This document shows, piece by piece, positions 15,127 through 28,672 of a stretch of DNA of 64,000 bases (the first letter of the stretch is position 1; each line of letters starts with the position of its first letter). The notes below the pieces were generated by a model. The model worked only from the letters and a program-made list of their open reading frames with translations. It was not told where the DNA came from and searched no databases. The translations under genes and the position numbers were made by a program. The DNA is from an uncultured delta proteobacterium (GTDB lineage: Bacteria; Myxococcota; Myxococcia; Myxococcales; Anaeromyxobacteraceae): assembly GCA_963828255.1 (NCBI GenBank), contig CAWHDZ010000015.1, positions 160,001 through 224,000 on the forward strand, in the 5' to 3' direction.

Positions 15127-16304
15127 TGCAATTCAAGAGCTTCGACATCGTCCCCCACGGGACCAAGTTCGACTTCGTCGGGAAGCGCAAGATCGCGCTC
15201 ATCCTGTCCACCCTCTTCAACCTGTCGGTGATCCTCTGGGCGCTCCCCCAGGTCCACGGCCTCAACTACGGGGTGGACTTCGCGGGCGGCACCGAGATGC
15301 AGGTGAAGTTCGACAAGGCGGTGGATCCCGGCGAGGTCCGGAAGCACATCGAGGCCCTCGGCTTCACGGACGCCGTGGTCCAGACCTACGGCCCGGAGAG
15401 CGAGCACAGCTACCTCATCCGCGTCGGGCGCGTGGCGCTGCTCACGCCCGAGGACGCCGCCCGCATCGTGGCGGCCGTGAAGGCGAAGTTCCCGGTCATC
15501 GGCCAGCCGGCCTTCAGCCCCGAGGTGGGCGACAAGATCGACTTCGAGTTCCAGGTGCTCCCATCCCAGGCCGAGTTGCAGGCGGTCGTCGAGTCGACCG
15601 GGGTCAAGGTCAGGGAGATCCGGGAGGAGGCGGGGCTCACCGCCGGGACCCGGTCGCTGGCCGTCCTCACCCAGGGCATCCAGGACCGCGTCGAGAAGGA
15701 GCTCGCCGCCCGCTTCGCCGACGCCACGCCCCAGGTGCTCCGGGTCGAGTACGTCGGCCCGGCGGTGGGGCGCGAGCTCCGCAACCAGGGGTTCAAGGCC
15801 ATCATCTACGCCATCGCGCTCATCGTGGTCTACGTCGGTCTTCGCTTCGACTTCCGGTTCTCCCCCGGGGTGGTCATCGCCATCCTGCACGACGCCATCG
15901 TCACGCTCGGTTACTTCGCCTTCACCGGCCGGGAGTTCAACCTCACCTCGGTGGCGGTCATCCTCACGGTGGTCGGCTACTCGGTGAACGACACGGTCGT
16001 GGTCTACGACCGGATCCGCGAGAACCAGGGCAAGCTCAAGGGCAAGAAGCTCGCCGACATCGTCAACGTCTCCATCAACGAGACCCTGGGCCGGACCATC
16101 CTCACCTCGTTCGCGACGTCGCTTTCCCTGCTCGGGCTCCTCATCTTCGGCGTCGGAACCATCTTCGACTTCGCCATGGCCATGCTCATCGGCATCGTCT
16201 CCGGCACCTATTCCACCTGGTTCATCGCCGCTCCGATGACCATCTGGCTCGAGGAGAGGGCCGAGGCGGCGAAGCAGAGGAAGGGCGGCGCCCGCGCCGC
16301 GTGA
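15126..16304 (+). CDS. secF: Protein translocase subunit SecF
   Basis: GVDFAGG, VGPAVG, GYSVNDTVVVYDRIRE, RTILTS. Confidence 0.95.
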   Translation: MQFKSFDIVPHGTKFDFVGKRKIALILSTLFNLSVILWALPQVHGLNYGVDFAGGTEMQVKFDKAVDPGEVRKHIEALGFTDAVVQTYGPESEHSYLIRVGRVALLTPEDAARIVAAVKAKFPVIGQPAFSPEVGDKIDFEFQVLPSQAELQAVVESTGVKVREIREEAGLTAGTRSLAVLTQGIQDRVEKELAARFADATPQVLRVEYVGPAVGRELRNQGFKAIIYAIALIVVYVGLRFDFRFSPGVVIAILHDAIVTLGYFAFTGREFNLTSVAVILTVVGYSVNDTVVVYDRIRENQGKLKGKKLADIVNVSINETLGRTILTSFATSLSLLGLLIFGVGTIFDFAMAMLIGIVSGTYSTWFIAAPMTIWLEERAEAAKQRKGGARAA

Positions 16305-16336
16305 CGACCGGGTAGATTAGGAAAGATTCATGATCG

Positions 16337-16366
16337 CGAGGGGCCCGTCGAAAGCCGGGCCCCTCG
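16337..16366 (+). terminator. GC-rich hairpin with GAAA loop downstream of secF (terminator-like, no clear U-tract)
   Basis: CGAGGGGCCCGTC-GAAA-GCCGGGCCCCTCG, 12 of 13 bp paired. Confidence 0.4.
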
Positions 16367-16443
16367 TCCCATTTCCGGGGTACACGAGTGGGCCCCGAAC
16401 AGGTACCTTTCCGGGGCTCGCGGAACGGTGAGGAGATTCACGC

Positions 16444-18660
16444 GTGGACATGGTGTCGAGCGCCGTCGCAGCGGCCGCCGTGCTGCTGGCGATCGTCATG
16501 GCTGTCGGCCACGTGGTCAAGCGGCGCCGCAGGATGGCGCACGACGCCGTGGTGCTCAAGGACAAGCAGGAGAAGAACCTCCACATCCCGCGGTCGCTCC
16601 ACCCCGTCATCGACACGGACATCTGCATCGGATCCCTCTCCTGCCTGAAGGCCTGCCCGGAGGGGGACATCCTGGGCATCCAGAAAGGCACGGCGACCCT
16701 GGTCCACGCCGACCACTGCATCGGTCACGGCCGGTGCGCCGCGGAGTGCCCCGTCCAGGCCATCCGCCTCGTGATGGGAACCCACGAGCGAGGCGTGGAC
16801 CTCCCCGAGGTGGACGAGTACTTCGAGTCGAGCCGGCCCGGGGTCCACGTGGTGGGTGAACTGGGCGGGATGGGGCTCCTGCGCAACGCCGTCCGGCAGG
16901 GGCTGCACGCCGCCAAGCGGCTCGACGGAATCCTCCCCAAGGGGGGCGGCGGCAAGGCGGTGGACGTGGTCATCGTCGGCGCCGGCGCGGCCGGCCTCGC
17001 CACCGCGTGCGCGCTCCACGAGGCGGGGCGGAGCTACAGGCTCCTCGAGCAGGGGACCTGGGGCGGCACGATGTACCACTACCCGCGCCGGAAGATCGTC
17101 ATGACCGAGCCCGCCACCATCCCGGGCTTCGGCAAGATCGGAAAGTCCATCATCAGCAAGGAGGAGCTGCTCGAGACCTGGGGCAAGGCCATCGAGAAGA
17201 TCCAGGTGAAGGTCGACGAGGGGATCCAGGTCACCGGCATCGACGGCGAGGACGGCGCCTTCGCGGTCCACACCACGAAGGGGATCATCGACGCACGCAA
17301 GGTCGTGCTCGCCTGCGGCCGCCGCGGCACGCCGAGGAAGATGGGGGTCCCGGGCGAGGAGCTCCAGAAGGTCACCTACGGCTTCACCGACGCCGAGCAG
17401 TACGGCGGGCGGCGGGTCCTCGTGGTGGGCGGAGGCGACTCGGCCCTCGAGGCGGCCATCCAGATCGCCGAGCTGGGCACCTCCGAGGTGGCGCTCTCCT
17501 ACCGCGGCGCCGAGCTCGGACGGGCCCGGCAGGCCAACCGGGACAAGCTGACCGCCCTCTCCGAGGCCGGGCAGCTCACGCTGCTCCTGCCCTCGCAGAT
17601 CAAGTACGTCACCGAGACCGAGGTCCGACTCGAATGGGACGGGCGCGAGATGCGCCTGCCCAACGACGACATCATCGTCAACATCGGCGGCGACCCGCCC
17701 GACGGCTTCCTCAAGAAGGCCGGCGTGGAGATGCGCCGCTACAAGGGGGAGCAGCTCGGGGCCAAGACCGGCGAGGACTACGTCAGCGAGGAGGAGATGA
17801 AGATGCGCCGGAGGCTGCGGCGCACGCTGGCGCTCTACGCCTGCCTGGGAGCCACCATCGTGGCCTACCTGGCCTACAAGGGCTGGGGCTACTACCAGCT
17901 CACCACCATGGCCCGGCTTCGGTCGCCGATGCACGGCGCCTTCAAGTCGGCGGGGCCGTGGGGGCACGGGGTGGGGATCGTGGCCACGGTCTTCATGCTC
18001 TCGAACTTCCTCTACCCGGTGCGCAAGCGCACCCGGTCCCTGACCGGCCTGGGGGACATCCGCGACTGGCTCAACTTCCACGTCTTCGTGGGGTTCATGA
18101 GCCCGCTCGTCATCGCGTTCCACGCCGCGTTCCAGTCGAACAACGTGCTCGCCACCGCGACCGCCATCGCGCTCGGGATCGTGGTGGGCACCGGGCTCAT
18201 CGGCCGCTTCATCTACGGGCTCGTTCCCTCCGTGGACGGCCACGCCGAGGAGCTCGAGCTCATCTCCGGCCGGTTCGAGCGGCTCCGGTCCACCGTTGAG
18301 CCGATGCTCGCCGGGGCCCGGGAGAGGAACCGGCTCGACAAGCTGGTGGCCTCGGCGACGGCCCAGGTTCCGAAGAGCTCTCTCATCGTCGCCCTCCTGC
18401 GGGAGCCGCTGTCCGGGCTGCGCTTCCGGTTTCGCCTCCTGCGGGTGCGGTTCCTCTTCACCGGGACGTCGCAGTACACTCGATTTCGCATCTCGGTGCT
18501 GCGCCTGCGCCGGCTCCGTTTCCAGATCGCCTTTTACGGCGGCCTGCGAAACCTGCTACGAAACTGGCGTGTCATGCACGCCTCCCTGGCGGTCTTCCTC
18601 GTCTTCGTCATGACCGTGCACATCGGCGTCTCGCTCTACCTGGGCTACGGACTGAAATGA
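16444..18660 (+). CDS. Membrane-anchored ferredoxin / TrxB-like FAD-NAD(P)H oxidoreductase fused to a diheme cytochrome b (ferric-reductase-like) membrane domain
   Basis: N-terminal TM; CIGSLSCLKACP and CIGHGRCAAECP; VGAGAAG; GGGDSA..YRG; C-terminal TM helices with two His pairs each 14 residues apart; AGGAG RBS. Confidence 0.8.
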   Translation: MDMVSSAVAAAAVLLAIVMAVGHVVKRRRRMAHDAVVLKDKQEKNLHIPRSLHPVIDTDICIGSLSCLKACPEGDILGIQKGTATLVHADHCIGHGRCAAECPVQAIRLVMGTHERGVDLPEVDEYFESSRPGVHVVGELGGMGLLRNAVRQGLHAAKRLDGILPKGGGGKAVDVVIVGAGAAGLATACALHEAGRSYRLLEQGTWGGTMYHYPRRKIVMTEPATIPGFGKIGKSIISKEELLETWGKAIEKIQVKVDEGIQVTGIDGEDGAFAVHTTKGIIDARKVVLACGRRGTPRKMGVPGEELQKVTYGFTDAEQYGGRRVLVVGGGDSALEAAIQIAELGTSEVALSYRGAELGRARQANRDKLTALSEAGQLTLLLPSQIKYVTETEVRLEWDGREMRLPNDDIIVNIGGDPPDGFLKKAGVEMRRYKGEQLGAKTGEDYVSEEEMKMRRRLRRTLALYACLGATIVAYLAYKGWGYYQLTTMARLRSPMHGAFKSAGPWGHGVGIVATVFMLSNFLYPVRKRTRSLTGLGDIRDWLNFHVFVGFMSPLVIAFHAAFQSNNVLATATAIALGIVVGTGLIGRFIYGLVPSVDGHAEELELISGRFERLRSTVEPMLAGARERNRLDKLVASATAQVPKSSLIVALLREPLSGLRFRFRLLRVRFLFTGTSQYTRFRISVLRLRRLRFQIAFYGGLRNLLRNWRVMHASLAVFLVFVMTVHIGVSLYLGYGLK

Positions 18661-20477
18661 CCAATCGACGAACCTGCACGGGTACCCGCCAGATCCTCGC
18701 CCCGCTGGCCGTCGCCGTCGCGCTGCTCGCCCTCCCGGCGCGGGCCGACCTCATCTCCCCCGGCGAGCTCTCCCGCGCCCACGAGAAGCTGGAGGGGCTA
18801 CAGAACTGCACCAAGTGCCACCCGGCCGGGAAGCAGTTCTCCGCCGAGAAGTGCCTGGAGTGCCACAAGGAGCTTCGCCCCAGCCTCTCTTCGGGGAAGG
18901 GGCTCCACGGACGGGCCTCCGAGAAGAAGTGCGAAGCCTGCCACCACGAGCACCACGGCAAGGACTTCCCGCAGATCGACTGGGGCGAGGCCGGGCAGAA
19001 GGCCTTCGACCACGCCAGGACCGGGTACCCCCTGGTCGGCAAGCACGCCAAGGCGAAGTGCGAGACCTGCCACGACCCCCGCCGCGTCACCGATCCCGCC
19101 GTGAAGGAGGTCCTGGCGAAGGGGCGCAAGAGCCTCCTCGGCGCGCCGGCAACCTGCGCCGGGTGCCACTTCGACGAGCACCGGACCCAGCTCGGGAACG
19201 ACTGCCAGAAGTGCCACGACCCCAACGCCTGGAAGCCCGCCACCAAGGGGTTCGACCACGCGTTGACCAAGTACCCGCTCAACGGGCTGCACGCCAAGGT
19301 CCCCTGCGCCAAGTGCCACGTTCCCCTGGTCGATCCGGAGGGCAAGCACACCTTCCCCCAGGCCGTCTCGGTCACCTACGCGAAGTACAAGCCGCTGCCC
19401 TTCGCCGCCTGCACCGACTGCCACAAGGACCCGCACCAGAACCGCTTCGGCGCGCTCTGCATCACCTGCCACGTCGTGGAGGGCTGGAAGGTCATGAAGG
19501 TGGGGCAGGGCGACAAGATCGCCTTCCACGAGAAGGCCCGCTACCAGCTCCGCGGCGCCCACCAGCAGGTGGAGTGCAAGTTCTGCCACGGTCCCTTCGA
19601 GGGGCAGGCGAAGGCGAGGTACAAGGACCTGGCGTTCAAGGCCTGCACCGACTGCCACCAGGACGCCCACCTCGGCCAGCTGGGGAAGGCCGGGCAGCCC
19701 CCGGCGGCCTGCGATCGCTGCCACGTCGTGCAGGGCTGGGTGCCGGTGCGCTTCGAGCTGGCCGAGCACCAGAAGACCAAGTACCCGCTCGAGGGCGCCC
19801 ACGTGGCCGTGGCCTGCGATCGCTGCCACGTGAAGACCAACAAGCTCGCCGAAAAGGCCCCGGCCGCGATGCGCGCCGAGATGAAGCGGCAGCGACGCCC
19901 GGTGAAGGTGAGCGAGTTCACCATGGAGAAGAAGGTGGACGGGAAGAAGTGCACCTCCTGCCACCGCGACGTCCACCAGGCGCAGTTCGAGAAGCGCATG
20001 GCGGTGGAGGGGTGCACGGCCTGCCATGACCAGGCCAGCTTCACGAAGACCAGGTTCGACCACGCCCGGGACACCAAGTTCCGGCTCGACGGAAAGCACG
20101 GCAAGACGGCCTGCGCCTCCTGCCACGCCGCCGCGACCGGAAAGGACGGGAAGCCCTACGTGAAGTACGCCGGTGCGCCCACGGCCTGCGCGAAGTGCCA
20201 CGCCGACCGGCACGCCGCCCAGTTCGCGGTGAAGAAGGTGACCCAGTGCGCCTCCTGCCACGGCGTCGAGGATTGGAAGAAGCTCAAGTTCGTCCACGCC
20301 GAGCCGTTCACGACCTACACGCTGACAGGCAAGCACGCCAAGGTGACCTGCGAGAAGTGCCACCCGCCGGTCAAGATCGGCACCCTCGAGATCAAGCGGT
20401 ACAAGCCGGTGTCGCGCGACTGCCAGGGATGCCACGCCGACTTCCACAAGGGCGCCTTCCGGGGGTACGAGCCGTGA
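18657..20477 (+). CDS. Exported multiheme cytochrome c, 20 CxxCH motifs
   Basis: Signal peptide ending ARA-D; 20 CxxCH counted; repeating FDH-TxYPLxGxH-CxxCH-CxxCH-DxH-CxxCH units; ATGA overlap. Confidence 0.9.
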   Translation: MTNRRTCTGTRQILAPLAVAVALLALPARADLISPGELSRAHEKLEGLQNCTKCHPAGKQFSAEKCLECHKELRPSLSSGKGLHGRASEKKCEACHHEHHGKDFPQIDWGEAGQKAFDHARTGYPLVGKHAKAKCETCHDPRRVTDPAVKEVLAKGRKSLLGAPATCAGCHFDEHRTQLGNDCQKCHDPNAWKPATKGFDHALTKYPLNGLHAKVPCAKCHVPLVDPEGKHTFPQAVSVTYAKYKPLPFAACTDCHKDPHQNRFGALCITCHVVEGWKVMKVGQGDKIAFHEKARYQLRGAHQQVECKFCHGPFEGQAKARYKDLAFKACTDCHQDAHLGQLGKAGQPPAACDRCHVVQGWVPVRFELAEHQKTKYPLEGAHVAVACDRCHVKTNKLAEKAPAAMRAEMKRQRRPVKVSEFTMEKKVDGKKCTSCHRDVHQAQFEKRMAVEGCTACHDQASFTKTRFDHARDTKFRLDGKHGKTACASCHAAATGKDGKPYVKYAGAPTACAKCHADRHAAQFAVKKVTQCASCHGVEDWKKLKFVHAEPFTTYTLTGKHAKVTCEKCHPPVKIGTLEIKRYKPVSRDCQGCHADFHKGAFRGYEP

Positions 20478-21322
20478 TCCACCTCGCCGCAGCCGCCGCG
20501 CTGTTCCTGGCCGCCGCACCACAGGCTCCCCAGGCGCACGCCCCCGCCGACACCAAGTGCTCGGCCTGCCACACGCCCGAGGGGTGGGGGGACGTGAAGT
20601 TCGTCCACGAGCGGACCGGGTTCCCGCTCACCGGGCAGCACGCCCAGGTGGCCTGCCGCAAGTGCCACGTGGTGGACTTCAAGCAGCCGCTGCCCCGAAG
20701 CTGCTCGGCCTGCCACCGCGACGTCCACGGCGGCAACGCGGGCGTCCAGTGCGCCACCTGCCACGACACCGAGAGCTGGAAGTCCCGCTTCGACGCGGAC
20801 GCCCACCGGCGCACCAACTTTCCGCTGCAGGGGCGCCACGCGCTGCTCCCCTGCGAGCAGTGCCACGGCGACAGGCGCGATCGCTCCTTCGCACGTCCCA
20901 CCGTTCCGTGCGCGGATTGCCACCAGGCCGACCTCTCCAACGCGGCGGCGAAGGGGGTGGACCACTCGGGGTTCGGGAACACGTGCCTGGGCTGCCACGG
21001 CTTCTGGCGCTGGAGCCCGGCCACCTTCTCGGGGCACGGGGCCTGCTTCCCCATCGACTCGGGCAGGCACGCCGGAATTCCCTGCCTGAGCTGCCACGTC
21101 ACGCTGCCCGTGCCGCTCGTCATCGGGTCCTGCACCAGCCAGCCTTCCCCGTCCTGCATCCAGTGCCACCCCTGCGCGTCGCACCCCCAGGTCCAGAGCT
21201 TCGTCTGCACCGACCAGGCCTGCTACGGATGCCACTACAACGGGCAGGTCAACGAGGGCGGCGGGAACCTCCGGACCAGGCAGCTGCGGATCGGACCCAC
21301 GCGGAGGACGGTGAAGCCATGA
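20474..21322 (+). CDS. Exported decaheme cytochrome c
   Basis: GTG start overlapping upstream TGA; signal peptide; 10 CxxCH counted; same repeat family. Confidence 0.9.
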   Translation: MIHLAAAAALFLAAAPQAPQAHAPADTKCSACHTPEGWGDVKFVHERTGFPLTGQHAQVACRKCHVVDFKQPLPRSCSACHRDVHGGNAGVQCATCHDTESWKSRFDADAHRRTNFPLQGRHALLPCEQCHGDRRDRSFARPTVPCADCHQADLSNAAAKGVDHSGFGNTCLGCHGFWRWSPATFSGHGACFPIDSGRHAGIPCLSCHVTLPVPLVIGSCTSQPSPSCIQCHPCASHPQVQSFVCTDQACYGCHYNGQVNEGGGNLRTRQLRIGPTRRTVKP

Positions 21323-22995
21323 GCGCGCTCCCCCTCCTGGCGTTGCTCCTCGCGGCGGGTTCGCCTGAGCAGGCGCAAGCCCCCGTCCCTCCGGCGCCGG
21401 CTGCCGTCGCGGCCCCCGTCGGCGCCCCGACGGCGCCCGTCGCCCCGGTGGCCCGCCGTGTCGAGGGGAAGGTGACCTTCGCCACCGCCACCACCGTCTA
21501 CCTCGACGCCGGCGCCCTGGAAGGGCTGACCATCGGCCAGGTCATCCAGGTCACGCGCGCCGCCCAGCCCGTCGGTACATGTACGGTGCGTGAACTGGCC
21601 GACCACTCCTCCACCTGCACGGGGCAGGGGGTCCGCGTCGGGGATCGTTTCACGGCGGACACGACGGTGCCCGGCGCGCCCGTGGTGGCCAAGATGGCCC
21701 CCGTCCCCACCGAGGACGAGCTGGACAGCCGCAACGCCATCCTGGTCGGGACCCCGGTGGCGCTGGTCGAGTCGAAGGCGAAGGCCCGCGACGTCGTGAT
21801 CGGCCAGCTCCCCAGCATCCGGGGAGATCTGGGATACGCGGTCTGGCTCGCCAGCCCGTCGGGGCCGGGGGACTCGCAGCGAATGCAGCTCGACGTCCAG
21901 GTGAACGGACTCGACGCCTTCGCCGGGTTCAAGTTCTTCGCCGACGCGCGCCTTTTACAATGGACCCAGCGGGACGAGACGTACGTGCCGGGATCCGCGA
22001 CCCAGTTGCTGGTCTACGACCTGGAGCTCTCCCAGCGCGACCCGAAGAGGAGCTGGAGCGCCGCCTTCGGACGGGTCATGCCCTGGTTCGCCCCCGGCTC
22101 GACGGTCTTCGACGGCGCCCAGGGCGGGCTGCGGTTCGGCCGGACCGAGGTCGGCGTCTTCGGGGGCGTGGTCCCGGATCCCTACACCACCGAGCCGACC
22201 CTCAACCGGTACACCGGCGGCGTCTACGTCAACTTCGAGGCCCCCCTGGGATCCACGCTGCTCTCCGGCAGCGCGCGCGGCGCGGTGGTGCAGAACCCCG
22301 CCGTGCTCCGCCACTACGAGGGGGAGCTCCTGCTGAACTACTGGGCGGGCGGCGTCTTCAGCGCCTCCGGCAACCTGCGCATGGGGTTCGGCGACGTTCA
22401 CGCGCCGTCCTACATCGACGCGGCCCGCCTGGCGCTCAGCATCCGGCCCGTCCCCATCTTCTGGATCTCGGGCGGCTTCTCCTACTGGGGACTCGCGATG
22501 CCGAACGACGAGCCCATCGCCACCTACCCCGGTCCCTCCCGCCGGGCCGACGGCTCGATCGGCGTGGACGCGACCCCCTGGCTGCGCATCGCCGGCCTGG
22601 GAGGTTGGGTGGACGACCTGACGTCCGGCCTGTCCCACACCTACGTGGGGCCCGAGGTGACCTTCACGAAGGTGCTGGCCGGCCTCTCCTTCGGCTACCT
22701 GAAGGACCTGGGATGGGTGGAGGGGCAGAGCGCCTGGGGGCAGATCGGCTGGGCCCCCGCACCGGGAGCGCGACTCACCGGCCGGGCCTCCTGGTTCCAG
22801 ACCACCCAGACCGTCGGCGGGGTGTCGAACTCCGCGCCGGCGAACGACGCCGGCCTCACCCTGAACGGGACGGTCGGGCTGACCCGCTGGCTCTCGCTCC
22901 GGGCGTCGGTGATGGTGCGGGCCGGGATCGACAACTTCGAGGCGTCGGTGCCATTCGGGACGGCGGCGAACGTGTTCCTCGTCGGCACCTACTGA
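21319..22995 (+). CDS. Probable outer-membrane beta-barrel protein with N-terminal soluble beta domain
   Basis: Signal peptide, Pro/Ala linker, many amphipathic Gly/aromatic strands, C-terminus NVFLVGTY (terminal aromatic); ATGA overlap. Confidence 0.7.
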   Translation: MSALPLLALLLAAGSPEQAQAPVPPAPAAVAAPVGAPTAPVAPVARRVEGKVTFATATTVYLDAGALEGLTIGQVIQVTRAAQPVGTCTVRELADHSSTCTGQGVRVGDRFTADTTVPGAPVVAKMAPVPTEDELDSRNAILVGTPVALVESKAKARDVVIGQLPSIRGDLGYAVWLASPSGPGDSQRMQLDVQVNGLDAFAGFKFFADARLLQWTQRDETYVPGSATQLLVYDLELSQRDPKRSWSAAFGRVMPWFAPGSTVFDGAQGGLRFGRTEVGVFGGVVPDPYTTEPTLNRYTGGVYVNFEAPLGSTLLSGSARGAVVQNPAVLRHYEGELLLNYWAGGVFSASGNLRMGFGDVHAPSYIDAARLALSIRPVPIFWISGGFSYWGLAMPNDEPIATYPGPSRRADGSIGVDATPWLRIAGLGGWVDDLTSGLSHTYVGPEVTFTKVLAGLSFGYLKDLGWVEGQSAWGQIGWAPAPGARLTGRASWFQTTQTVGGVSNSAPANDAGLTLNGTVGLTRWLSLRASVMVRAGIDNFEASVPFGTAANVFLVGTY

Positions 22996-23448: not shown

Positions 23449-24573
23449 CTACTTCCCGCGGGAGAACTCCTCCATGAACGTCGCCAGCGCATCGACCCAC
23501 TCGAACGGCACGGCGTTGTACGTGGACACCCGGATCCCGCCCACCGAGCGGTGACCCTTCAGCCCGACCATGCCGCGCTTCTTCGCCTCGGCGACGAACT
23601 GCTCCTCGAGGGGCTCGGTGGGGAGCCGGAAGACCACGTTCATCACGGAACGGCTCTCCCGCTCCACCGGGGAACGGTAGAAGGCAGGGTTGGCGTCGAT
23701 GGCCCCGTAGAGCCGGGCCGCCTTCCGGCGGTTCGCCGCCTCCATGGCGGGCAGACCGCCCAGCCCCTTCAGCCAGGCGAGCACGTTCCGCACCATGTAG
23801 ACGCCGAACGTGGGCGGCGTGTTGTAGAGCGACCTGTTCTCGGCGTGGGTGCGGAACTGGAAGATCTTGGGGATGTCCTTCCGCCCCTTCTCGACGAGTT
23901 CCTTCGACACGATGGCGACCACGATGCCGGAGGGGCCGATGTTCTTCTGGGCGCCGGCGTAGACGATGCCGAACTGCGACACGTCGAAGGGGCGCCAGAG
24001 GAAGTCGCTCGACATGTCGGCGACGAGCGGTGTCGCCCCGGTGCCGGGGTAGGCGCGCGACGCATCCACGTTGAACTCGATGCCGTGGATGGTCTCGTTC
24101 GACGTGAGGTGCAGGTAGGAGGCGGCCGGATCGACCTTCACCTCGGCGGGGGAGGGGACGCGGACGTAGCTCTTCTCCTTGCCGTCGCCGGTGCCGGTGG
24201 TCTGGGTCGCGACCGAGCCGCCCAGCATGGCCGCCACCACCTTGGCCTCGCCGACCGCCTTCTCGCCCCAGGCGCCGGTGACCAGGTACTGGGCCGCCTT
24301 GCCCTTCTCCATGAGGTTCATGGGGATCTGGGCGAACAGGGCCGACGCCCCACCCTGGAGGAACAGGATCTCGTGGGTGGCGGGAACGGCGAGGAGTTCG
24401 CGGAGAAGGGACAGCGCCTCGTCGTGGACCGCCTCGTACTCCTTGCCTCGGTGGCTGTGCTCCATGACCGACATGCCGCTGCCGGCGAGGTCGAGGAGTT
24501 CCTCCCGGGCCCGCTCCAGCGCGGGGAGCGGCAAGGCTGCGGGACCGGCGTTGAAGTTCATCTTGCGGGCCAT
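23449..24573 (-). CDS. serC: Phosphoserine aminotransferase
   Basis: [49 protein letters not shown]. Confidence 0.95.
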
Positions 24574-27841: not shown

Positions 27842-28591
27842 AGAGATGGAGTCCCCATCGATGCGATCTCCGACGAGCTCGTCCAGCGTCTCAAGGGCGA
27901 TCTCGTCGAGAACCAGCGGAACAGCAAGACCATCAACAACGTGCTCACCGCCCTCTCGGTCATGCTGAAGCGCGCGGCGGACTGGAAGGTCATCGATGCA
28001 ATGCCCTGCCGGATCAAGCTCCTCAAGTACGAGCGGACCGAGGTCTCGTTTTACGACTTCGCCGACTACGAGAAGCTCTTACAGGGCGCAGCGGCCCTCG
28101 ATGTCCGCATCGAGCTGCTCGTGCTCCTGGGCGGAGGCGCGGGCCTGCGCCGTGGAGAGGCCATCGCAGTGGAGTGGAGCGACGTCGACCAGAAGCGGAG
28201 CGTCCTGCACGTGCAGCGCAGCGAGTGGGACGGCCACGTGACCACGCCCAAGGGCGGCCGATCCCGGCGAGTGCCGATGACGGCTCGCCTGGCTGCCGCC
28301 CTCAAGGCCCATCGTCACCTCCGGGGCTCCCGAGTTCTCTGCCACGAGAATGGGGACGCCATCGGCAGGCAGGCCGTGCACGAGTGGATGGAGAAGGCCC
28401 AGCGACGGGCTGGCCTAAAGGTCACGGGCGCGTATCACATCCTCCGCCACACCTTCTGCTCGCACCTCGCGATGCAGGGCGCGACGGCGAAGGCCATCCG
28501 GCTGCTCGACCGGAGGCCGACCGGCGAATCCGTTGGAGACGGTTTGGAGACGGGCTCCGGGCCGGAGACGAAGTCGAGGGAAGTTCCGTAG
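27842..28591 (+). pseudogene. Tyrosine recombinase/integrase remnant
   Basis: KTINNVL, GLRRGE, TPKGG, YHILRHT present; in-frame TGA at 27809 with no start for the N-terminal part; GH...Tyr catalytic segment missing. Confidence 0.8.
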
Positions 28592-28596
28592 TTGAG

Positions 28597-28672
28597 TGGT
28601 GAGGCGCCCGGGAATCGAACCCGGAACCACCGGCTTAAAAGGCCGATGCTCTGCCAGTTGAGCTAGCGCCTC
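28597..28672 (-). tRNA. tRNA-Lys(UUU)
   Basis: GAGGCGCTAGCTCAACTGGCAGAGCATCGGCCTTTTAAGCCGGTGGTTCCGGGTTCGATTCCCGGGCGCCTCACCA; 76-nt cloverleaf, anticodon TTT, encoded CCA. Confidence 0.97.

Follow-up and report, generated by a model that had tools for sequence, protein, structure and literature searches.

A conserved four-gene operon from an Anaeromyxobacteraceae genome that may wire NADPH to the cell surface

The characterised electron conduits of Gram-negative bacteria start at the quinone pool, according to the available text of PMC4245776; in the same source the Pcc of Anaeromyxobacter consists of two clustered genes, with 12-14 hemes. Two cluster types, PCC3 and PCC4, have been defined by a porin, multiheme cytochromes and an inner-membrane protein with an HX13H motif, and are modelled on quinone (PMC5566968). 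The periplasmic cytochrome of PCC3 has a median of 21 hemes and a low residue-to-heme ratio (PMC5566968), and the function of PCC3 is so far a prediction, as in the accessible parts of two surveys of Gallionellaceae (PMC9900912, 10.1101/2025.02.27.639646). The Ptd operon, ptdABCDEFG, is described as encoding a porin, an FAD/NAD(P) oxidoreductase, a protein with cyclic nucleotide (cNMP) and 2x4Fe-4S domains, a ferric-reductase-like protein, and cytochromes of 5, 4 and 10 hemes, with function not assigned (10.1101/2023.11.21.568154). We have analyzed an operon at positions 16444 to 22995 of a 64,000-nucleotide stretch of DNA (the window; contig CAWHDZ010000015.1 of assembly GCA_963828255.1, positions 160,001 to 224,000) from an uncultured delta proteobacterium whose named close relatives are Anaeromyxobacteraceae. 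The operon is real, conserved and uncharacterised, and what appears to be new in it is a probable entry for NADPH built into a single chain. A first-pass annotation of the sequence had taken the system for an unrecognised one. The layout is in fact published, as PCC3/PCC4 (PMC5566968) and as Ptd (10.1101/2023.11.21.568154), and the annotation holds in so far as none of these clusters is characterised in the accessible text.

The operon consists of four open reading frames (ORFs) on the + strand, joined, as first annotated, by 4-nt overlaps (ATGA at 18657, GTGA at 20474 and ATGA at 21319); GC at the third codon position is 0.93-0.96 in all four. Gene 1 (16444..18660, 738 aa) fuses a membrane anchor, a ferredoxin domain, a flavin/NADPH domain and a five-helix membrane domain with four His. 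Gene 2 (18657..20477, 606 aa) is a repeat-built 20-heme cytochrome c with a start resembling a signal peptide, and gene 3 (20474..21322, 282 aa) is a 10-heme cytochrome c of the same repeat type. Gene 4 (21319..22995, 558 aa) comprises an N-terminal beta domain, a helix and a predicted 22-strand outer-membrane barrel. The assignment of signal peptides to genes 2-4 is based on sequence and hydropathy.

The soluble part of gene 1 follows an N-terminal anchor (16462..16518, +; residues 7-25). Since the anchor is followed by KRRRR, carries no Tat motif and has its basic flank on the same side as those of the later helices, a cytoplasmic location is predicted for the ferredoxin and flavin domains. 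Fer4 and Pyr_redox families match gene 1 in profile searches, in keeping with the initial assignment of a ferredoxin and an FAD/NAD(P)H domain fused to a His-paired membrane domain. The two-cluster ferredoxin domain (16600..16764, +) is atypical, with motifs C61xxS64xxC67xxxC71P and C92xxH95xxC98xxxC102P. The second Cys is missing from both motifs, being replaced among fused orthologs by Ser in the first (52/54) and by His in the second (54/54). Proteins of the split form described below have the His motif in 49/49, and their first motif has Thr in 29, Ser in 15 and Gly in 1 of 45, never Cys. Both 4Fe-4S clusters with Ser/Thr and His among their ligands and 3Fe-4S clusters are conceivable here. 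The FAD and NAD(P)H domains that follow (16957..17751, +) have the fold of thioredoxin reductase (TrxR) and Bdr and contain GGGDSA and an NADPH-type Y353-R354-x7-R362. The segment by which reductases close the FAD domain on its C-terminal side (16795..16938, +; residues 118-165), with the GD motif here reading G138-E139, instead precedes the Rossmann motif.

The model of gene 1 has a mean predicted local distance difference test score (pLDDT) of 81.3 and a predicted template modelling score (pTM) of 0.63, from an alignment of 106 sequences. The nearest solved folds of its flavin domain are Bdr and the TrxR-type ferredoxin-NADP+ reductases; the match to 7a76 (Bdr) has Z 21.4 and a root-mean-square deviation (rmsd) of 4.5 over 267 aligned residues, and it goes no further than residue 281 of the 326 in Bdr. 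A profile built from residues 113-171 of gene 1 matches glutathione reductase 293-341 (E 0.002) and, more weakly, lipoamide dehydrogenase 306-349, with GD changed to GE. Because the Bdr match stops at 281/326 and the closing segment sits in front, the flavin domain is, judged by its sequence, circularly permuted. It thus shares with Bdr (YpdA) and the TrxR-type reductases the fold and the lack of CxxC, but differs in the permutation, in GE for GD and in its fusion to ferredoxin and membrane domains. R354 is found in 55/55 sequences and R/K362 likewise in 55/55. In the TrxR family a conserved Arg pair of this kind marks NADPH preference, so this conservation points to NADPH as the probable substrate. 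The domain's only Cys are C189 and C291, neither of which is conserved; the redox-active CxxC of thioredoxin reductase is absent, and the flavin domain is therefore not a disulfide reductase.

The membrane domain (17818..18648, +) has five predicted helices (449-484, 505-520, 539-561, 568-593 and 675-735 in the model), with the motifs W542xxxH546x13H560, T583GxxG587 and W708xxxH712x13H726. A helical insert of ~105 residues (601-705) between the last two helices is predicted to lie on the cytoplasmic side. Both His pairs, 546/560 and 712/726, are conserved in 55/55 aligned sequences of 41-82% identity, and all four His are invariant to two decimals across 127 aligned membrane domains of fused and split forms. 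H546 and H712 are predicted to lie near the cytoplasm and H560 and H726 near the periplasm. On the strength of this conservation, of the spacing and of the model, the domain is predicted to be a di-heme cytochrome b. The near-invariant H508 and the stretch G504-G511, in the outer half of helix 2, have no role within the four-His scheme, and if the domain has a site for a quinone or a partner, H508 is the strongest candidate for it.

In NOX/FRE proteins of the FRD superfamily, four His lie on transmembrane helices 3 and 5 (TM3 and TM5), 12-13 residues apart, in the accessible account (PMC3591440). H546/H560 and H712/H726 are spaced and placed as in NOX TM3/TM5, but gene 1 has no match to PF01794, PF08022 or PF08030; the PF01794 control matched in 5/14 genomes and elsewhere in this genome. 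Comparison by hhalign of the membrane domain with 30 PF01794 proteins gave no significant match (E 0.15). In further contrast to NOX/FRE, whose FAD (PF08022) and NADPH (PF08030) domains are of FNR type and C-terminal, the flavin domain is N-terminal, permuted and of TrxR fold, an Fe-S relay is present, and the acceptor would be a chain of cytochromes c. The entry point had been called NADPH-oxidase-like. As a description of function this stands; as a family assignment it does not, given the N-terminal TrxR/Bdr fold with two Fe-S motifs in front of it and the lack of PF01794. Gene 1 thus appears not to be a member of the NOX family, and the operon, by analogy, would act as a NOX feeding a porin-cytochrome conduit. 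Whole-chain fold searches of gene 1 returned matches filled by the flavin domain. The best 120 of 5538 matches in a profile search with the membrane domain were mostly fragments of fused proteins, and no PCC3 organism was named among them.

Genes 2 and 3 contain 20 and 10 CxxCH motifs, respectively, as first counted, against means of 0.2 and 0.13 and maxima of 3 and 2 in 2000 residue shuffles. The further His (24 in gene 2, 11 in gene 3) are enough for bis-His ligation, and the proteins have 27 and 23 residues per heme, respectively. In 11 related loci the two genes form a single ORF, with linkers down to 14-15 residues; these natural fusions are evidence that the two cytochromes may act head to tail. 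Sequence search found no solved relative of the 20-heme protein, and gene 3 has no lipobox. Additional cytochromes adjoin the barrel gene in relatives and carry a lipobox in 18/20 examined, as expected of a surface terminal; the lipoprotein cytochromes added in this way have 7-30 hemes.

Giant cytochromes are encoded elsewhere in the same genome. Contig C7 (208488-244718) has stop-to-stop frames with 37, 49, 46 and 25 CxxCH, and contig C27 (175739-188940) has frames with 42, 25 and 16. Several of these have lipoboxes, and they are possible surface partners of the operon. In related loci a cytochrome of 27-57 hemes often adjoins the operon, on either strand (L065, L066, L068, L069, L072-L074, L076, L077, L079, L082-L084 and L087).

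In the model of gene 4 (pLDDT 90.4; 145 sequences) a small beta domain (residues 44-117), in which C88 and C100 are invariant, is followed by a helix and then by 22 strands, with Tyr as the last residue. Foldseek and VIA ranked outer-membrane barrels first, with Z of about 19 for barrels of 22 strands; the match to PiuA has Z 19.3 and rmsd 5.8 over 339 aligned residues. Identity to the matched barrels is 6-12%, and the barrel part alone (residues 162-558) aligns, with no plug. Neither Pfam nor NCBIfam matches gene 4, whose unnamed family has 1263 representatives at E up to 0.001 and which falls in the Atlas into unnamed clusters (Myxococcota, Planctomycetota). TIGR03509 (MtrB/PioB) did not match gene 4; nor did it match anywhere in the genome, in a search whose control also matched nowhere. 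Gene 4 is thus predicted to be an outer-membrane beta-barrel, and the model bears out the earlier suggestion of a probable barrel.

The membrane domain matches 131/401 genomes of the phylum, 44/67 in the family and 8/8 in the genus; the tally takes in the window's own genome and one unpublished genome (G196), which supports no other result here. Sixty stretches around matches were picked for long contigs and for spread over families, and exclusion of three weak, distant matches left 57 loci. Gene 1 is fused in 54/57, and three have frame breaks (L060, L063 and L096), which we read as probable assembly frameshifts. At least 20 heme motifs lie downstream in 52/57 loci and a barrel as well in 50/57, so that the co-occurrence of the four genes, which the first-pass annotation had proposed to examine, is borne out. 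The other seven loci are four stand-alone gene 1 copies (L050, L052, L096 and L099, with no adjacent cytochromes or barrel), one locus at a contig end and two whose stretch contains no barrel. In L050 the gene 1 copy is followed by a 14-heme gene and by what we take to be an efflux-type pair. The gene 1 orthologs of L094, L097 and L099 are frames of 960-980 aa in which ~160-230 residues are inserted close to where the flavin domain ends; two of these loci, L094 and L097, have the barrel upstream. The distant relatives of the membrane domain in L102-L104 are in frames of 640-780 aa, two with a weak ferredoxin match; none has a flavin domain or multiheme genes beside it. In L048 a cytochrome and a barrel appear fused, but the signal peptide of the barrel is retained internally, and the fusion was rejected as a probable assembly frameshift.

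Outside the phylum the operon occurs in a split form. On a plasmid of Emticicia oligotrophica (Bacteroidota; NC_018749.1, locus L105, 8860-20658) the order is ccsA, membrane protein, ferredoxin-flavin protein, 23-heme cytochrome, 40-heme cytochrome and barrel, the barrel being a distant homolog of gene 4 (profile E 1.9e-7; hhalign E 0.0026). Because this operon is plasmid-borne and brings its own ccsA, the wire can move between hosts. The Emticicia membrane protein has 520 relatives in metagenomes, and none of the best 80 is fused. The flavin gene directly follows the membrane gene in 54/57 of the metagenome loci with enough downstream DNA, and 13/15 long loci have the full set, cytochromes and barrel included. 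The modules are therefore fused in one lineage and adjacent, in reversed order, in another, which supports the view that the flavin module is tied to the membrane domain. A Sphingobium plasmid (NZ_CP020539.1, locus L107, 9620-14795) carries a cNMP-domain flavin/Fe-S protein, a related membrane protein with both WxxxHx13H motifs, and a 10-heme cytochrome; this operon contains no barrel.

Compared by description, the window operon has the layout of a PCC3-type cluster to which an NADPH module is added by fusion. It shares with PCC3 a barrel gene (here the 22-strand model with its matches to barrels), a repeat-built periplasmic cytochrome of ~21 hemes with a low ratio (20 CxxCH and 27 residues per heme here) and an inner-membrane protein of ~300 aa with five helices, two WX3HX13H motifs and SGXXG, represented here by the fused domain with TGxxG. 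It differs in the fusion of the membrane protein to a ferredoxin/NADPH-flavin module, which the available text does not mention for PCC3, and in a second cytochrome that has 10 hemes and no lipobox. Gene 3 may or may not be the counterpart of the extracellular multiheme cytochrome of PCC3; in relatives a lipoprotein cytochrome is added. PCC3 is also reported from Proteobacteria and is modelled inward, to quinone. The word ferredoxin is absent from the main text of He et al. 2017, while supplementary tables 3-5 and Figure 4, on PCC4 redox domains, may overlap with the present case (PMC5566968). PCC4/Ptd likewise combines a porin and multiheme cytochromes in one cluster, and its FAD/NAD(P) oxidoreductase, 2x4Fe-4S and ferric-reductase-like parts are here all domains of gene 1. 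It differs in having seven genes, a cNMP-binding domain and separate redox chains, against four genes, 20+10 hemes and a one-chain entry here; its three periplasmic cytochromes have 4, 5 and 10 hemes, where the window operon has cytochromes of 20 and 10. With MtrCAB/MtoAB and the Geobacter and Anaeromyxobacter Pcc the operon shares a barrel and a decaheme cytochrome, and with MtoAB the lack of a surface cytochrome gene, but the barrel appears to be of another family and those conduits draw on the quinone pool. The window cytochromes score 36.7 and 43.2 bits against TIGR03508 (DmsE family), whose cutoff is 192.2. We found no description of a fused gene 1-type protein, or of a member from Myxococcota, in the open literature, to which the search was confined (subscription papers were outside its scope), nor of the operon in the accessible text of PMC13608581, PMC9386147, PMC5492636, PMC2330069 and PMC4245776.

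These observations suggest an outward wire from NADPH to the surface that spans both membranes and needs no quinone, a proposal that on balance we think probable, with some reserve. In this scheme the predicted FAD of gene 1 would take up electrons from cytoplasmic NADPH and hand them on singly, through the two predicted Fe-S clusters, to the inner and then the outer of two predicted b hemes. From there they would enter the 20-heme and then the 10-heme cytochrome, and the latter, seated in the predicted barrel, would reach the cell surface. The feeding of a membrane b heme by a cytosolic NADH reductase has a precedent in MsrQ, as far as described in PMC12525009. The direction proposed follows from established bioenergetics. 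Outward flow is redox-downhill and aided by the inside-negative potential; with a proton released inside it would run down the membrane potential, as NOX does, and spend proton-motive force. Since such flow dissipates proton-motive force, the wire would most likely serve as a valve for redox balance or as a low-potential exit for electrons (to metals, humics or partner cells), and not as an energy-conserving respiration. The first-pass annotation had allowed flow in either direction; this was too even, since electrons moving inward to NADP+ have to climb both in redox potential and against the membrane potential.

Several points weigh against this proposal. For all members of the system the case is made from genes. 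The loci of the phylum and of the metagenomes are kin, near-duplicates included, so that the counts are not independent. Gene 1 lacks an adjacent wire in 4/57 loci, and two more have no barrel in the fetched stretch. The window operon encodes no surface lipoprotein cytochrome, and the top structural matches of gene 4 are transporters and porins, not MtrB. Profile searches detected no sequence homology of the membrane domain to MsrQ-like proteins or solved chains, and since PF01794 is also unmatched, the heme b reading draws on His spacing and the model. He et al. 2017 modelled the same motif family as quinone-active (PMC5566968), and because PCC3 clusters as described have no flavin partner, the membrane domain is apparently workable from another donor. 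Gene 1 might accordingly be a quinone-linked branch point: its membrane domain would be a cytochrome b that reacts with quinone, the flavin module would be a second input or a route from NADPH to quinone, and the wire would then not bypass the quinone pool. The motifs shared with the PCC3/PCC4 inner-membrane proteins speak for this, as do H508 and G504-G511, left without a role by the four-His scheme, and the ubiquinone carried by MsrQ, possibly as acceptor (PMC12525009). We nevertheless think it rather unlikely: the potentials measured for MsrQ contradict quinone as the donor in the text available (PMC12525009), a quinone is made unnecessary by the flavin module, which in two distant groups is strictly fused to the membrane domain or adjacent to it, and the genome has NapC/NirT-family proteins elsewhere for quinol oxidation.

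Alternatively, the wire could end in the periplasm or in the lumen of the barrel, with the barrel a channel for substrates such as ferric chelates and the cytochromes reducing what is imported or storing charge, as an assimilatory reductase. The best structural matches of the barrel are indeed 22-strand siderophore and cobalamin receptors, IruO, which has a role in iron release, is among the TrxR-fold relatives of the flavin domain, the window operon lacks a lipoprotein cytochrome, and the cluster is also on a plasmid of Emticicia, an aerobe. However, identity to the receptors is 6-12% and the barrel aligns without a plug, a 30-heme chain far exceeds the needs of a periplasmic reductase, and relatives add lipoprotein cytochromes of 7-30 hemes; no link to Fur or TonB was seen in the operon, though no search was aimed at one. 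We regard this account as quite improbable. An inward wire, in which Fe(II), Fe(0), a cathode or a partner cell would supply the electrons that reduce NADP+ or ferredoxin in the cytoplasm, is likewise unlikely, and of the readings considered here we give it the lowest probability. It would fit the reversibility of TrxR-type ferredoxin-NADP+ reductases, which is established, and the iron oxidisers from which PCC3 is known in the accounts available, including the rise of its membrane gene in iron-oxidising Sideroxydans CL21 cells. But it would run against the membrane potential and require a donor near -450 mV, and nothing encoded in the operon provides a second flavin or a high-potential branch that would allow bifurcation.

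The operon is flanked upstream by what we take from its translation to be secF, ending at 16304, and downstream by a presumed serC on the opposite strand (23449-24573). Neither a sigma-70 promoter nor a terminator consensus was found on the + strand. A G+C-rich hairpin at 16336-16367 between secF and gene 1 (-28 kcal/mol for 16330-16375), without a U tract, is a possible terminator. Contigs from RNA libraries (two runs) cover pieces of the genes, and run X1 spans the 1/2 and 2/3 junctions; they were not taken as proof of expression or co-transcription, because flanking genes are equally covered, the contigs come from relatives and DNA may be present. Farther downstream, a 216-aa ORF (27941-28591, -) that we presume to be tyrosine-recombinase-like directly adjoins a tRNA-Lys gene (28597-28672, -) and is likely a remnant of an integrated element.

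An NADPH-wired conduit would shift extracellular electron transfer toward the disposal of reductant and low-potential delivery, away from energy conservation, and would give a donor to the untested membrane protein of PCC3/PCC4. Because flavin, Fe-S and heme domains share one chain here, the quinone question is testable with one purified protein, unlike in the split systems, and the operon, being only four genes long, might serve as a part that couples NADPH to electrodes. A bolder suggestion, which we offer tentatively and with considerable doubt, is a quinone-free exit, in which a single chain draws electrons from NADPH and the membrane potential helps to drive them onto the 30-heme wire, so that its exit potential lies below that of any menaquinol-fed conduit. 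If true, this would suffice for crystalline iron oxides or for direct transfer to methanogens or other partners, and extracellular electron transfer would have a second design class, one that is common among the relatives of Anaeromyxobacter and occurs in split form in Bacteroidota.

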